NCBI RefSeq assembly: GCF_044324875.1
Contig: NZ_CP172185.1
DNA from: Escherichia coli
Lineage (GTDB): Bacteria; Pseudomonadota; Gammaproteobacteria; Enterobacterales; Enterobacteriaceae
Length of the DNA stretch: 64,000 bases
Reading direction: 5' to 3' (one strand)
This document shows, piece after piece, positions 758 to 59,357 of the stretch. Position 1 is the first letter of the stretch. Every line of letters begins with the position of its first letter. A model generated the notes under the pieces. The model was not told the DNA's origin and ran no database searches. It worked only from the letters and a program-made list of their open reading frames with translations. The translations under genes and the position numbers were made by a program.

Positions 758-1349
758 TTCGACGTTAGCATGAGAAAAGTATTTTTACGCTAAATCAACC
801 CGAACTTTCCTGAAGTAATCTGACGTTCTTTTCGATGTGCTTACGACGATTCTGTTAAACGACTTTCTGGATGTTTTGATAACGATCAGCCTGAGGTGTG
901 CATTAACGATTCCTGACGTTTTGCTTTTTCATGTAAGGTCATTGTTTTCGTCATGATGTGATTCATCTTGCATTGCGAAAGTGTGATGATTGGTTTTGGT
1001 GTTTTGTCGTGGATGCGGTTTACGTTATCGGTGGTTAAGCGTTTATGGTGTGTTGAAAAGTAACATACTCAAGATAAGAAAATCGATTCTGATGGGGATG
1101 ATCTTGTTACGACGTTATCTGTAAACAGGTTTTCAGCGTGTCATTTCGCATCCGCGATTGAGCGATGTTGTTAAGCTGCAGGTTTGATTTGCATTGTCTG
1201 GATGCGTTTCTGGTGTTTTGTTGATTCGTTTCCCTTCTGACTTTGTCGTTTTTAAATCCATTCGCTGTTGTTGTGTGTTTTTACCCTGCGTGCAGTGAAC
1301 CGCCCCGGGAATCCTGGAGACTAAACTCCCTGAGAAAGAGGTAAACAGA

Positions 1350-1676
1350 ATGACTAAAAATACTCGTTTTTCCCCCGAAGTCCGTCAGAGGGCGATTCGT
1401 ATGGTTCTGGAAAGTCAGGGCGAATATGACTCACAGTGGGCGGCAATTTGTTCCATTGCCCCAAAGATTGGCTGTACACCGGAGACTCTGCGTGTCTGGG
1501 TACGCCAGCATGAGCGGGATACCGGAGGCGGTGATGGCGGGCTCACCACCGCTGAACGTCAGCGTCTGAAAGAGCTGGAACGTGAAAATCGTGAACTGCG
1601 CCGCAGTAACGATATCCTTCGCCAGGCTTCCGCTTATTTTGCGAAGGCGGAGTTCGACCGCCTCTGGAAAAAGTGA
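1350..1676 (+). CDS. IS3-family transposase OrfA (helix-turn-helix, leucine-zipper part)
   Basis: 108-aa [26 protein letters not shown]... typical of IS629/IS3411 OrfA; ends 4 bp into orfB in the -1 frame. Confidence 0.85.
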
Positions 1677-2563
1677 TGCCACTGCTGGATAAGCTGCGTA
1701 AGCTGTACGGGGTCGGACCGGTATGCAGTGAACTACATATTGCCCCGTCAACGTATTACCACTGTCAGCAACAGCGACATCATCCTGATAAACGCAGTGC
1801 CCGTGCGCAGCGCGATGACTGGCTGAAGAAAGAGATACTGCGCGTATACGATGGGAATCATCAGGTATACGGTGTGCGTAAAGTCTGGCGTCAGTTGTTA
1901 CGGGAAGGAATCAGGGTAGCCAGATGTACAGTGGCGCGCCTCATGGCGGTTATGGGACTTGCCGGTGTTCTCCGGGGTAAAAAGGTCCGCACTACCGTCA
2001 GCCGGAAAGCCGTTGCCGCAGGCGACCGCGTAAACCGTCAGTTTGTGGCAGAACGTCCTGACCAGTTGTGGGTGGCTGATTTTACTTACGTCAGCACATG
2101 GCAGGGGGTCGTCTATGTGGCGTTCATCATTGATGTGTTTGCCGGATACATCGTGGGGTGGCGGGTCTCATCGTCTATGGAAACGACATTCGTGCTGGAT
2201 GCTCTGGAGCAGGCGTTATGGGCCCGTCGACCGTCCGGCACAGTCCATCACAGTGATAAAGGTTCTCAGTATGTATCGCTGGCCTACACACAGCGGCTTA
2301 AGGAAGCCGGATTACTGGCATCAACAGGAAGTACTGGTGACTCGTATGACAACGCGATGGCGGAGAGCATCAATGGCCTTTACAAAGCGGAGGTAATACA
2401 CCGTAAGAGCTGGAAAAACCGGACAGAAGTGGAGCTGGCCACACTCACGTGGGTGGACTGGTATAACAATCGACGATTGCTGGAAAGGCTGGGCCATATC
2501 CCACCGGCAGAAGCAGAAAAAGCTTATTATGCTTCCATCGGAAACGATGATCTGGCAGCCTGA
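1673..2563 (+). CDS. IS3-family transposase OrfB (DDE integrase-like catalytic domain)
   Basis: 296-aa ORF with rve-type catalytic region (WVADFTYV..., HSDKGSQY..., DNAMAES); -1 frame relative to orfA. Confidence 0.85.
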
Positions 2564-2677
2564 GTTCACAGATAAAACACTCTCCAGGAAACCCGGGGCG
2601 GTTCACAGGTTTGTCTTTTCGTTCGTAGGGGATTCATTCGCGATTGGCGTTGCGCAATGGTGGGATACGGTAAAGTT

Positions 2678-2722
2678 TTACCGCAGTGATTAATGATGTG
2701 AAGTCAATCCAAATCAATGGAG
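2678..2722 (+). promoter_or_regulatory. conserved 5' leader motif TTACCGCA-TG-TTAATGATGTGAA...GTCAA upstream of a YagK-family gene (copy 1)
   Basis: near-identical motif recurs at 9602-9645 upstream of another YagK-like gene. Confidence 0.45.
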
Positions 2723-2732
2723 ATCTCTCATC

Positions 2733-3464
2733 ATGAACCAACCAATACACAATGCTTACTGGTTATCCCGTTTTGACAGCCTGCTCGACAGTGCCCTGGC
2801 GCAACACCGTGCCGTCTCGTTCATCCGGGTGGATTTACGGTTTCCTGAGTATATGCCTGCCACCATCATGGACTCCGGGCCGGATTCAGCGGTGATTTCC
2901 CGTTTTTTCGCCTCCCTGAAAGCCAAAATTCAGGCTTACCAGCAGCATAAGCGACGTACCAGTCAGCGTGTGCATGCAACCAGCCTGCGTTATTTCTGGT
3001 GCCGGGAGTTCGGAGAGGAAGAAAACAGGAAACATTATCACGTGATATTACTGCTCAACAAAGATACCTGGTGCTCGCTCGGGGATTTCAGCGAACCATC
3101 TTCGCTGGCGGCGATGATCCAGGAGGCATGGTGCAGCGCTCTGCATCTTGAGCCCTGGCAAGGCGATGGTCTGGTCCATTTTTCCAGGTGGAAGCCTTTT
3201 CGTAAACCAGCATCGTCTGATGCCCGTCCTTCTTCCGGTGACACCCCTTTGTCGGGTGGATGTTCTGATACCAGGAAGGCTGCAGACAAAAAGCCGGGTG
3301 AAGCCGCTGTTCTCTGGATCAAGCGTGGTGATGTGGCAGCGATGCAGAAAGCCCGGAAAAGAGCCCGTTATCTCGTGAAAAATCAAACGAAGCAGCATGA
3401 CGGTTCTGGTCAACGTAATTATGGTTGCAGCCGTGGGCCGGGGCGTCTGCTGGATGGCAGGTGA
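2733..3464 (+). CDS. YagK/YfjJ-family protein (inovirus Gp2-like, prophage-associated)
   Basis: 243-aa ORF with VSFIRVDLRFP and HYHVILLLNKD signature segments recalled from CP4 prophage YagK/YfjJ proteins. Confidence 0.6.
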   Translation: MNQPIHNAYWLSRFDSLLDSALAQHRAVSFIRVDLRFPEYMPATIMDSGPDSAVISRFFASLKAKIQAYQQHKRRTSQRVHATSLRYFWCREFGEEENRKHYHVILLLNKDTWCSLGDFSEPSSLAAMIQEAWCSALHLEPWQGDGLVHFSRWKPFRKPASSDARPSSGDTPLSGGCSDTRKAADKKPGEAAVLWIKRGDVAAMQKARKRARYLVKNQTKQHDGSGQRNYGCSRGPGRLLDGR

Positions 3465-3974
3465 AGTCTGTAAAACGGTATCCGGTGCCAGGGGGGGGAT
3501 ATCACGGTAAGGGCGTCAGCCAACGTCTTTCGCTCGTATTCTGATAACCCGTCCTGAAGTCATGTATCTGCTTCCATTCTCATGTTCATATTTCTCTGAC
3601 GCTTTCACTGTCTGTCATCGGAAGTACCGATTTATTTTGGTGCTGCGCACTTACGGCCATTCACGGAAGAGGATTGTGGTGAACAGTAGGAGTCTGGCTG
3701 CTGGCGAGGGAAGGTTCAGGACTGGTATGGGGTTTAGTGCTGGAGGATGACTTTGAATCCCGGATTGACCAGTGAGGGGGCAGTGAGAGGATGCTCTGGT
3801 GTAACAGGTCTGGATTACAAAATATAAAACCGGTTGTACACTCGTAACGGGTAAAAGGATACGGGCAATAACACGTGGTACCCGGTGAGACTGGCTCTTG
3901 TATCACATTACCGGGAATATTCTGGCAGGTGAAATGTTCTGATAAGAATCATCCTGAGGGAGGATACAACGGAT

Positions 3975-11508: not shown

Positions 11509-14354
11509 ATGAAAATCTGTCTTTACCATACCCTGAATCCTGAAACGATCCCGGGCTATAAAAAGTTTGCGCAGGCCATTGAGGCAGATAATTTCGCGCA
11601 GGCGGATGTGCGTAAAATTGATACTAATCTCTACCGGGCACGCCTCAGTATCCGGGATCGGTTGTTGTTTTCACTTTACCGTTACCGTGGTGAGACGGTC
11701 TGCCTGGTACTGGAATATCTGCGTAACCATGCTTACCACACGTCACGTTTTCTGCGCAGGAATGTGGTGATCGACGAGGCGCGGCTGCAGCTGCAACCGG
11801 TGCCGGATCCGGCAGATGCAGACGCCGGTACACTGACGTATCTCAACCCCACTCACGGGCGTTTTCACTACCTGGATAAAATGCTCTCTTTTGATGATGA
11901 CCAGCAGGCGCTGTATGAACATCCGATGCCACTGGTGATTGTCGGCTCCGCCGGCAGCGGAAAGACGGCACTGTTACTGGAGAAAATGAAGCAGGCCGGG
12001 GGCGATATTCTGTATCTCAGCCTTTCGTCATTTCTGGTGGAAAAAGCCCGCACACTCTATCACGCATCTGGTGAAGAACATGACGGGCAGACCATTGATT
12101 TTCTGTCGCTGAGCGAGTTTCTGGAAACCCTGCGCATTCCGGAAGGGCGGGAGGTGACGTTCAGTGCGTTCAGCAACTGGCTGCCCCGCAACCGGACCAC
12201 CGCTGCACTGGGCTCTGGCCATACCCTGTATGAGGAATTTCGTGGTGTCATTGGTGCCGTTGCTTCTGACAACGGACCGCTGTCCCGGGAGGCGTATCTG
12301 TCGCTGGGAGTACGTCAGTCACTTTATGATATGGATGACCGTCCGGCGGTTTACGCCCTGTTTGAGCGTTATGTTGCATGGCTGAAACAGTCGCGTCAGT
12401 ATGACAGTAATCTTCTCAGCCACCAGTACCTGCCACTGGCCGGGCACCGTTATGATGTGGTTTTTGTGGATGAAGTGCAGGATATGACGCCTGTGCAGCT
12501 GCGGCTGGTTCTGAAAACCCTGCGTCATCCCGGTCAGTTTGTACTCTGCGGCGATGCCAATCAGATAGTTCATCCCAGCTTTTTTCCTGGAGTGCCCTCA
12601 AAAGCCTCTTTTTCCGGCAGCAACAGAACGAGGCTGCCGTGAATATTCTGCAGGCGAATTACCGTAACGGGCACCATGTCACCGCACTGGCTAACCGGCT
12701 GCTCAGACTTAAACTGGCCCGGTTCAGTGCCATTGACCGGGAAAGTCACCATTTTGTCAGAAGCTGCGGGCAGACGGAAGGCACCATCAGGCTGCTGGAA
12801 GACCGGGAAGCCACCCGCCATGAGCTGAACAGCAAAACCTCCCGCTCAAACCGTGTGGCGGTGATTGTGATGCAGCCGGAGCAGAAAGCACAGGCCCGGC
12901 GCTGGTTCAGTACACCGCTGGTTTTTTCGGTTCAGGAAGTGAAGGGGCTCGAGTACGAAACGGTGATCCTGTACAACATGGTCAGCAGTACCCGTAAGGC
13001 ATTTGATGATATCTGCGAAGGGATCAATCCGGCAGATCCTGAGGGTGAGGTGCGTTATGCCCACCCCCGGGACCGGCAGGATCGTTCAGCAGAAATCTAC
13101 AGGTTTTTCACCAACGCGCTGTATGTTGCGCTCACCCGTGCCACGCACAACGTGTACCTTGTTGAGCAGGAGGTGGCCCATCCGCTGTGGTCCCTGCTGG
13201 CCCTCACGCATCATGAAACGCAACTGGAGCTGCAGGAAGAGATTTCCAGCCGTGATGAGTGGCAGAAAACCGCTCACCTGCTGGAAAAACAGGGGAAGCA
13301 GGAGCAGGTGGACACCATCCGCAGTATGATCCTGCAGGAGTCAGAAGTACCGTGGCAGATCTTCAGCGCAGAGGATGCGCGGCAGTGGAAACAGCAGATC
13401 CTCAGCGGGACGGCGGACAAAGCCACGAAACTGCAGGCGCTGGAATACAGCCTGATTTATTCCCTGTTTCCGCTGTATAATGCGCTGTACCGGGAAGATT
13501 TTAAGCCCACAAGGCAGCCCCGGACCCGGAGCCAGCAGTTACTGGAGCAGAAGTATTTTCGTCCCTACTCAGTGAATAATCCGGTCGCCGTGCTGAGGGA
13601 TATTGAACGTTATGGTGTTGATCACCGCTCGCCGTTTAATCTTACGCCGCTGATGCTGGCAGCCCGGGCGGGGAACACGGCGCTGGTTCAGTTGCTGCTG
13701 GATCGTGGTGCCGATCCCACGCTGACGGCAAATGACGGGCTGGCGGCGTATCATCATGTTCTGTCAGCGGCGGTCAGCACGCCCCGTTATGCGCAGCAGA
13801 AGGGGGCACAACTCTATGCCTTGCCGGGACCGGAAAGCCTGTCACTGCAGGTGGAAGGGCGGCTTGTCAAACTGGACAACCGGCAGATGGCAATGTTTCT
13901 GGTGATCCTGATGCAGGCATTGTTTTACACGCATCTGGGGAATGCTCTGGTTTTTTCAGAAGCCTTCAGTGCGGCACGACTGGCAGAGTGTGTCGCCCAC
14001 TTTCCTGAAGCCCTGCTGCCGGAACGCCGCAGGCGGAGGAATTATATCAGCAGCCAGCTTTCTCAGCATGAAGTTAACAGCAAGAACCCTTATGGAAAAA
14101 AGCTGTTTCTGCGACTGAGGCATGGTCAGTATATTCTTAATCCGGGGCTGAAAATCAGGCAGAATGACGGGTGGTACCCGGTTTACGACTTGCAGTCACC
14201 GGAAGATCTCGGTCATGATTTACAGACGTATCTGCAGGACATGCCCCCGTACATTCTGGAGATTCTGGGGGGCAGGAAGGATGTTTACGAACAAAGTAAG
14301 GGGTCTGTCGGATACTGGGTGGCGATGATCCGCCGTCACAGTGGTGAGCCGTAA
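11509..14354 (+). pseudogene. UvrD/Rep-like SF1 helicase with C-terminal ankyrin repeats, split by a frameshift in a T6 tract (12580-12585)
   Basis: Walker A GSAGSGKT, motif II VFVDEVQD, motif III CGDANQ in frame 1; downstream NYRNG, ALTRATH motifs and ankyrin repeat (LTPLMLAARAGNTALVQLLLDRGADP) in frame 3; adding one T restores one ORF of about 947 aa. Confidence 0.7.
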
Positions 14355-16554: not shown

Positions 16555-16689
16555 ACCGGAACCGTTTACCCCAAGCAGAGCGGCAATAGATCCGCCTGGT
16601 ACTGTGAAGGATGCATCGCGCAGTGCTTTCTGCCCGTTTCGCCAGGTGACAGTAACGCCATTAACGACAATACCCGCAGATTGCATCAT
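16555..16689 (-). pseudogene. sitB: sitB 5' fragment (ABC transporter ATPase, truncated inside the Walker A motif)
   Basis: first ~45 codons resemble SitB-type ATPase (SFTVPGGSIAALLGVNGSG) then diverge into repeat A; start overlaps sitA stop. Confidence 0.6.
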
Positions 16690-17603
16690 TACTTCTCCCT
16701 TTTCCCGGCTTTAATTCCCTGCACCAGCGTACTGGTAGTAACCTTCAGAAGGTCGATATACGTAGGTACCGGGCCGTTTTCTGTGCTCAGGGAATCGACA
16801 TAGAGCACACCGCCGTAGTGTGCGCCGGTTTCACGCGCAACCTGACGCGCTGGTTTATCGGAAACCGTACTCTCACTAAATACCGCTGGGATATTATTTT
16901 TCTTCACTATATCAACCACTTTACGTACCTGCTGGGGTGTTCCTTGTTGATCGGCATTTATCGGCCACAGATAAAGCTCTTTTAGCCCCAAATCGCGTGC
17001 GAGATAAGAAAAAGCCCCTTCACTGGTGACCATCCATCTTTTATTCTCAGGGAGTTCAGCAATCTGCTTACGCAGGGGGGCAAGGGTTTGGGTAATCTTG
17101 GCTTTATAAGTATCGGCATTACGTTGGTATGTTTTTGCATTTGCCGGATCGTATTTTATCAACGCATCGCGAATATTATCGACGTAAATCAAAGCATTAT
17201 CTGGCGACATCCAGGCATGAGGGTTAGGTTTTCCCTCGTAGGGGCCTTCGGTGATCCCTACTGGCGTCACACCCGAAGAGACAATCACTTCTGGAACACC
17301 ACTGAGATGCTGGTAAAAGCGCTGGAACCACAATTCCAGATTCATACCGTTGGCGAGAATCAGTTGTGCCCCCTGCGCACGTTTAATATCGCCAGGGGTA
17401 GGCTGATACTCATGAATTTCTGCACCGGGCCTGGTTATGGATGAGACTTCTGCAGCATCTCCAGCCACGTTTTTGGCCATATCTGCGATGATGGTAAATG
17501 TTGTAATGACCTTGAATTTTTCAGTTGCACTCGCCTGAAATGCTATCGAGCAGGTGAGGGCGAGGCACCCCAGGAGCATGGTTACTTTTTTTATTGAGTG
17601 CAT
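16689..17603 (-). CDS. sitA: SitA, periplasmic Mn/Fe-binding protein of the SitABCD ABC transporter
   Basis: 304-aa ORF with signal peptide; recognised as the SitA/cluster A-I metal-binding protein family. Confidence 0.8.
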   Translation of the reverse strand: MHSIKKVTMLLGCLALTCSIAFQASATEKFKVITTFTIIADMAKNVAGDAAEVSSITRPGAEIHEYQPTPGDIKRAQGAQLILANGMNLELWFQRFYQHLSGVPEVIVSSGVTPVGITEGPYEGKPNPHAWMSPDNALIYVDNIRDALIKYDPANAKTYQRNADTYKAKITQTLAPLRKQIAELPENKRWMVTSEGAFSYLARDLGLKELYLWPINADQQGTPQQVRKVVDIVKKNNIPAVFSESTVSDKPARQVARETGAHYGGVLYVDSLSTENGPVPTYIDLLKVTTSTLVQGIKAGKREK

Positions 17604-58880: not shown

Positions 58881-58927
58881 GGTATTGACTTTCTTTGTGT
58901 GAGCTTTAAATATGGCAGGGCTAACTT

Positions 58928-59110
58928 GTCGCTCCGGCGACCACCAATGTTCCATAGTGGCCTGTGAGGAACGCCTTCGGGTGGCCCATGTCGCTTCAGC
59001 GACCACCAATGTTCCATGTGGCCTGTGAGGAACGCCTTCGGGTGGCCCACGTCGCTCCGGCGACCACCAATGCTTCATCTGACCTGTGAGGAGCGCCTTC
59101 GGGTGGTCAG
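58928..59110. repeat. three tandem ~61-bp repeats
   Basis: GTCGCTCCGGCGACCACCAATGTTCCAT-GTGGCCTGTGAGGAACGCCTTCGGGTGGCCCA x3 with a few substitutions. Confidence 0.8.
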
Positions 59111-59357
59111 TTTTACACCTCCTGAGCCTGAAAGGAGCTGTGCGTACTGAAGGGATATATTCCCGGAAGTACGGGCAAATCTGCACACCTTTGAGAGCAG
59201 ATGTCACTGCGGTTTTCCGTGATGATGAAGGCTTTTTTTACTGCACAGACAGCCGGAAATTCAGCTGATTCCGGCATCCCCGACGGGAACTATCACTCCC
59301 GTCAGGGCTGGTGATGTTCTCCGTCATATCTTTTTTTCACTCCATGGAGAAATCATC

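Follow-up and report, generated by a model that had tools for sequence, protein, structure and literature searches.

IS629 is reportedly an element from Shigella sonnei, described by Matsutani and Ohtsubo in 1990, and the apical loop-internal loop (ALIL) frameshift pseudoknot is said to have been defined in IS3411, by Mazauric et al. in 2008. By the ISfinder convention, isoforms of an insertion sequence (IS) share >95% nucleotide and/or >98% amino-acid identity. Rump et al. treated IS1203 and IS3411 as isoforms of IS629, and retained the name IS629 for subtypes that are 4–5% apart (PMC3271280); IS629 duplicates 3–4 bp of its target (PMC3271280). The organization of orfA and orfB around a −1 frameshift has been documented, and in IS1203 the OrfAB frameshift product is the transposase, while excision is IEE-dependent (bioRxiv 10.1101/2023.06.07.543989). 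Elsewhere in the IS3 family, hybrid promoters, co-transcription and an outward −35 element in the right inverted repeat (IRR) have been reviewed (PMC9330008).

The element described here occupies positions 1296–2605 (+ strand) of a 64-kb window, by which we mean the whole stretch of 64,000 nt of Escherichia coli DNA that was analysed (contig NZ_CP172185.1), and it is a complete insertion sequence of the IS629 group, IS3 family. With IS629 (the copies in Stx2_499, BP-4795 and pCP301) it shares a length of 1310 bp, identical terminal bases, near-identical left (IRL) and right inverted repeats, the common layout of a 108-aa orfA and a 296-aa orfB, and a 3-bp duplication, but its nucleotide identity to these copies is only 95.3–96.0%, so that it represents a distinct subtype and not the reference sequence. 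Length, architecture and ends are likewise those of IS1203/IS1203v of E. coli O111:H− and O157:H7, an IS629 isoform and the relative that has been studied by experiment, from which the window copy differs in having G instead of A at IRL position 14; PGAP does not give the name IS1203 to the window subtype. At the end of orfA the window copy reads AAG TGA, whereas the compared IS629/IS1203 copies have AAA followed by TGA or TAA. The likeness to IS3411, compared via the Rfam ALIL model, consists of a full-length match to that model at the orfA/orfB overlap. IS911 resembles the window element in its OrfA and OrfAB products generated by a −1 frameshift, its DDE transposase, its TG...CA ends, its 3–4 bp duplication and, presumably, copy-out-paste-in transposition through a circle, but it uses another slip motif and another stimulator.

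An IS629-group element with intact ends

The window element aligned base for base and without indels, from one terminus to the other, to the intact copies annotated as IS629 and IS1203 with which it was compared, the pCP301 copy carrying a 4-bp internal deletion. Its termini, TGAACC...GGTTCA, are imperfect inverted repeats with the 5'-TG...CA-3' pattern of the IS3 family: IRL (1296–1320, + strand; TGAACCGCCCCGGGAATCCTGGAGA), which starts with 5'-TG, is complementary to the 25-bp IRR (2581–2605, − strand), which ends in CA-3', at 23 of 25 positions. These were the sole matches to IRL or IRR in the 64-kb window when up to three mismatches were allowed, and 100 shuffles gave none. The ends also coincide with those of the GenBank mobile_element 'IS3 family IS629' in phage Stx2_499 (LC567824), which is exactly 1310 bp long with a duplication of AGG. 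Alignment to IS629, which the initial annotation had named as the test of its ends and target duplication, was thus run against annotated IS629 copies, and it bore out the description of an exact 1310-bp element with intact ends; all the numbers given there were correct, including the 127 nt (2606–2732) between the element and the ATG at 2733 of a YagK-like gene. On either side the element is flanked by CAG (1293–1295 and 2606–2608). Since a 3-bp match between the flanks alone has a chance of 1/64, IS-free (empty) sites were sought, as described below.

Nucleotide identity was 95.0% to IS1203 on pO157 and 95.7%, 96.0% and 95.3% to the IS629 copies in Stx2_499, BP-4795 and pCP301 respectively. 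The deduced OrfAB was 97.0% identical to two intact IS629 copies and 96.0% identical to IS1203, with 12–16 residue differences from the named IS629/IS1203 proteins. These values, 95.0–96.0% for nucleotides and 96.0–97.0% for OrfAB, lie at the ISfinder isoform threshold. Because subtypes 4–5% apart are treated as IS629 (PMC3271280), an element that is 95.0–96.0% identical to annotated IS1203 and IS629 copies is accurately called 'IS629-like', the wording used from the outset, and these comparisons place it as a separate subtype on the border of the isoform range.

Coding capacity and predicted frameshifting

orfA (1350–1676, + strand) encodes a 108-aa helix-turn-helix (HTH) DNA-binding protein (Pfam HTH_Tnp_1, E = 1.8e-12), the exact sequence of which was found on at least 1000 contigs. 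orfB (1673–2563, + strand), in the −1 frame, encodes the DDE catalytic domain (Pfam rve, 3.5e-27; HTH_21, 1.2e-17), with the catalytic triad D136, D195 and E231 specified by the codons at 2078–2080, 2255–2257 and 2363–2365, and with a lysine at +7 from the glutamate, as in the IS3 family. An ORF in frame 0 followed by one in frame −1, with a predicted frameshift signal where they overlap, is also the IS3-family layout, and OrfAB matched NCBIfam NF033516 at 363.7 bits (cut-off 160) over profile positions 1–369 of 369.

At the orfA/orfB overlap, the segment 1631–1747 (+ strand) matched the ALIL pseudoknot model of Rfam (RF01497), a frameshift stimulator, over its entire length (1–117 of 117) with 116.2 bits, compared to a gathering score of 50. 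Four Watson–Crick pairs and one G-U pair can form between loop 1 of this structure (GUUCG) and the second hairpin's internal loop (CGGAC), and the loop bases are identical in all the aligned IS629/IS1203 copies. The −1 frame is open from 1610, and we infer that slippage occurs at UUUU (1637–1640, + strand), which is U_UUU when read in frame with orfA, 5 nt ahead of ALIL stem 1; this placement follows the NCBI annotation convention and the position of the Rfam model. The 404-aa OrfAB fusion predicted for this site is exactly an NCBI multispecies 'IS3 family transposase', found on 33 contigs. A distal candidate, A_AAG beside the orfA stop codon, was rejected because its fusion is absent from a collection of 15 billion proteins, while the UUUU fusion is recorded, and because ALIL stem 1 lies upstream of A_AAG. 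Judged by these features, the copy looks transposition-competent.

The element would then work as follows. OrfA, with its HTH, would be translated from 1350, and some of the ribosomes would slip by −1 on UUUU, stimulated by the downstream ALIL pseudoknot, to produce the 404-aa OrfAB DDE transposase. If the IS911 paradigm applies, OrfAB would make a circular copy with abutted ends (copy-out) that is subsequently pasted in with a duplication of 3–4 bp. We simulated such an IRR-CAG-IRL circle, in which the best candidate for a junction promoter was TTCACA-15-AATCCT; this candidate is unconvincing, and a junction promoter was rejected.

Spread of the subtype

Copies at least 99% identical to the window element were found in 826 records of complete E. 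coli genomes. Among those listed, the contexts are unrelated (a fimbrial usher, a phage baseplate gene, a phosphoethanolamine transferase and a NikB relaxase plasmid), which indicates that the subtype is mobile. A copy on an IncHI2 plasmid of Salmonella Heidelberg is 99.92% identical, being one base apart (IS position 491: T in the window, G in the plasmid copy) by a synonymous change (CCG to CCT). Copies one synonymous base apart were found across many E. coli and Salmonella replicons, and no 100% identical copy was present in the complete genomes or plasmids searched.

Empty sites and the insertion target

In other E. coli, alleles without the IS have the sequence ...GCGTGCAG|GTTTGTC..., in which CAG occurs once. 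In the IS-free E. coli 23CRST013 the junction is ...CCCTGCGTGCAG|GTTTGTCTTTT..., again with a single CAG, and the window flanks joined by one CAG aligned to this allele as a single colinear block with 93.6% identity over 1950 nt. Among 5,426 complete E. coli genomes, 880 contain the reconstructed 206-bp empty site as an unbroken homologue, at up to 97.1% identity; no IS-free allele of the exact lineage was found, the nearest empty sites being 95–97% identical. Since the colinear IS-free alleles carry one CAG, the event is, on these alignments, a simple transposition that duplicated 3 bp of the target. The comparison with an IS-free allele that the initial annotation had proposed as a check thus upholds its reading of the two CAG copies as a target-site duplication.

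The spacer that received the insertion, part of an E. coli genomic island, is AT-rich (33–43% GC) and poor in ORFs. In related genomes, GTPase-family, DUF932 and antirestriction genes precede the YagK/YfjJ gene, which is followed by genes for an acyltransferase, a hydrolase, YfjI, an HTH regulator, a UvrD-like helicase and an Rpn nuclease. In the window, this YagK/YfjJ-family ('inovirus Gp2 family') gene of 243 aa (2733–3464, + strand) is co-oriented with the IS and separated from it by the 127-nt spacer (2606–2732, + strand), in which the native upstream sequence is kept, colinear with the IS-free alleles. Its product matched Pfam PF11726 (YagK_YfjJ_C) with 127.2 bits (gathering score 25.8, E = 8e-37) and REP_ORF2-G2P with 30.9 bits, and the PGAP names of its homologues agree with 'inovirus Gp2 family'; a search with the NCBIfam HMMs gave no match.

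On the minus strand, an open stretch of 85 codons runs over the empty site (2609–2637 joined to ~1136–1295), and an 82-aa 'hypothetical protein' is annotated in the homologous DNA of LH50-c and BEN5202. We considered and rejected a disrupted minus-strand gene: the similarity is divided between frames, the closest IS-free allele (95% identical) lacks the ORF, and no ORF conserved across the insertion point was found. Given the split-frame similarity and the absence of the ORF from that allele, this stretch is probably not a gene and the insertion target probably non-coding.

Several other features of the island and window were observed. Upstream of the IS, within the AT-rich spacer, TTTTGTG is repeated 6.4 times in tandem at 715–759, and the alignment to a sister genome (see below) breaks and overlaps at 710–766, at this repeat, which suggests that its copy number varies. 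Compared to E. coli LH50-c, the island segment 2664–17864 is 99.1% identical over 15 kb, but only 93% over the first ~945 bp (the YagK-like gene, 2664–3608), and at most 85% to the left of it; by this comparison the YagK-like gene is at a mosaic or recombination boundary. Two overlapping ORFs, 11509–12642 and 12639–14354 (+ strand; 377 and 571 aa), have as their counterpart in the 99%-identical island of LH50-c what is annotated there as one frameshifted UvrD-helicase-domain pseudogene. Judged by its position, a 304-aa ORF (16689–17603, − strand) appears to be the counterpart of sitA. A truncated sit ATP-binding gene comes after sitA in LH50-c, with IS66 and transposase fragments in the flanks, an arrangement that suggests a decayed sitABCD iron/manganese transporter cluster at an island junction. 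Lastly, two adjacent matches to the Rfam STAXI RNA, at 58927–59049 and 59050–59233 (+ strand; 61.6 and 66.3 bits, gathering score 40.5), have surroundings that resemble an SPI-7-type integrative island, with ParB, an island DnaB helicase, topoisomerase III and a tyrosine recombinase.

The insertion in its clone

In the sequence collection, 69 blocks contain the 243-aa downstream protein in exactly this form. The sister assembly GCA_027274645.1, one long contig of 5.8 Mb, carries the IS at this very site, flanks included, as well as the T at IS position 491; between it and the window there are two substitutions and the loss of one base within a run of A, differences taken to be sequencing errors. 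Six more draft contigs with the identical downstream gene (~13–14 kb) start at window position 2608, 2495, 2395 or 1955, and all six examined stop inside the IS or at its edge, as short-read assemblies break at repeats. The junction at the sit cluster probably explains why draft contigs of ~13–14 kb end near there. Because the sister assembly has the insertion and six contigs stop in or at the IS, the insertion is fixed in a clone and predates the spread of that clone. The initial annotation had called it recent, with which the intact ends, ORFs and duplication are compatible, but they give no date for the event, and the insertion is common to the clone, along with its private T491; what is claimable on age is the absence of decay since insertion, nothing more.

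Predicted effect on the YagK/YfjJ gene

The initial annotation had envisaged that an outward promoter, or disruption of the native one, could alter expression of the gene at 2733. A scan for sigma-70-like promoters scoring at least 9/12 found none on either strand in 1100–2900. In a looser scan (at least 7/12), the retained 127 nt gave weak candidates only, such as TTGCGC-15-TAAAGT, and there was no candidate that spanned the insertion point in the reconstructed empty allele or that made use of the IS end. The IS end and the duplication together read TTCACA, five of the six bases of a TTGACA −35 element, and no usable −10 hexamer was found 15–19 nt from it. A hybrid or outward promoter was rejected on these results, there being no sigma-70-like site and the weak candidates neither including the IS end nor spanning the empty site. 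A literature search likewise found no outward promoter specific to IS629. Upstream of YagK-like genes, conservation is widest in the final ~96 nt, a block located downstream of the insertion point, and it extends across that point in about half of the homologous loci.

Between the end of orfB (2563) and the ATG at 2733, no terminator-like site was seen on the + strand. With the IS and the gene co-oriented and no such site between them, read-through from the IS into the 2733 gene is possible, and is the sole mechanism that the sequence leaves. Most likely, the insertion would have little or no effect on the 2733 gene beyond this possible weak read-through, a putative neutrality that we read from weak promoter scans.

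IS629-group insertions were also seen at YagK-like genes in four other genomes: ~75 nt upstream of the gene in BEN5202, with a duplication of CAA; within the gene in NRZ105019 and 13TMH22, with duplications of GTC and ACC respectively; and within the gene in DXMF6-3R, without a duplication and with an adjacent deletion. In locus coordinates, these four lie at 1501–2808 of L016, 1675–2984 of L017, 3940–5249 of L002 and 2645–3954 of L018. Including that of the window, there are five independent insertions, all at different positions, four of them with their own 3-bp duplication and the fifth with the adjacent deletion. A rough expectation is ~2 (31,408 IS places in 28 Gb and ~2,115 loci of ~860 bp), compared to the ~5–6 seen in a search biased toward co-oriented cases; the difference is not significant, and enrichment of IS629 at YagK-like loci was rejected. 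The other insertions may mark a hot spot or simply a tolerant target.

Discussion

We consider it highly probable that the window records the transposition of a full-length IS629-group element into an island spacer, 124–127 bp upstream of the YagK/YfjJ-family gene, with duplication of CAG, and that this copy looks competent, is fixed in a clone and likely has little or no effect on its neighbour. A rival to simple insertion is that two copies of the IS recombined by homology, or that the element forms one end of a composite transposon. In its favour, many E. coli hold several IS629-type elements (the median is 4 places in genomes that have any); yet the matching 3-bp duplication and the colinearity of both flanks with IS-free alleles in one alignment give such an origin a negligible probability, and a composite transposon or second copy was rejected, the 64-kb window having no other IS629 end anywhere. 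An immobile relic, seemingly intact yet inactive and inherited vertically, would be in keeping with the fixation of the insertion in the clone, with the single copy in the window and with the private substitution at IS position 491. That substitution, however, is synonymous, OrfAB is identical to that of copies at many sites and replicons, and every functional signal is intact, which makes a relic quite improbable.

A regulatory insertion, in which expression of the YagK/YfjJ gene is altered by transcription that starts in the co-oriented IS or reads through it, or by relief of silencing once the gene is set apart from its AT-rich upstream region, could account for fixation in the clone, although fixation requires no selection. 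It would be in line with the common strand of IS and gene, the lack of a + strand terminator-like site in 2563–2733, the AT-rich left flank (33–43% GC), the splitting by the insertion of a stretch conserved in 880 genomes and the TTCACA at the junction, five-sixths of TTGACA, outward −35 elements being known to come from IS3-family IRRs (PMC9330008). We nonetheless regard it as unlikely, as TTCACA lacks a −10 element at 15–19 nt, no promoter of at least 9/12 occurs in 1100–2900, the IS splits no candidate for a native promoter, and the literature search yielded no outward promoter for IS629. Given the five independent insertions, YagK/YfjJ genes or their leaders might be a preferred or selected target of IS629-group elements, in which case the co-oriented window insertion would rewire or silence a Rep-like island gene instead of being neutral; this strikes us as highly improbable.

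The element is an ordinary one: a very common mobile element of E. coli, complete and apparently functional, in an island rich in mobile DNA. For the lineage that carries it, the IS explains why short-read assemblies break 125 bp upstream of the YagK-like gene, and the insertion together with the private T491 provides a clean clonal marker, usable in typing of the IS-printing kind. If the Rep-like gene at 2733 were driven by read-through from the IS, this would be a minor case of IS-mediated rewiring, and, as an intact copy, the element is a possible source of further rearrangements.
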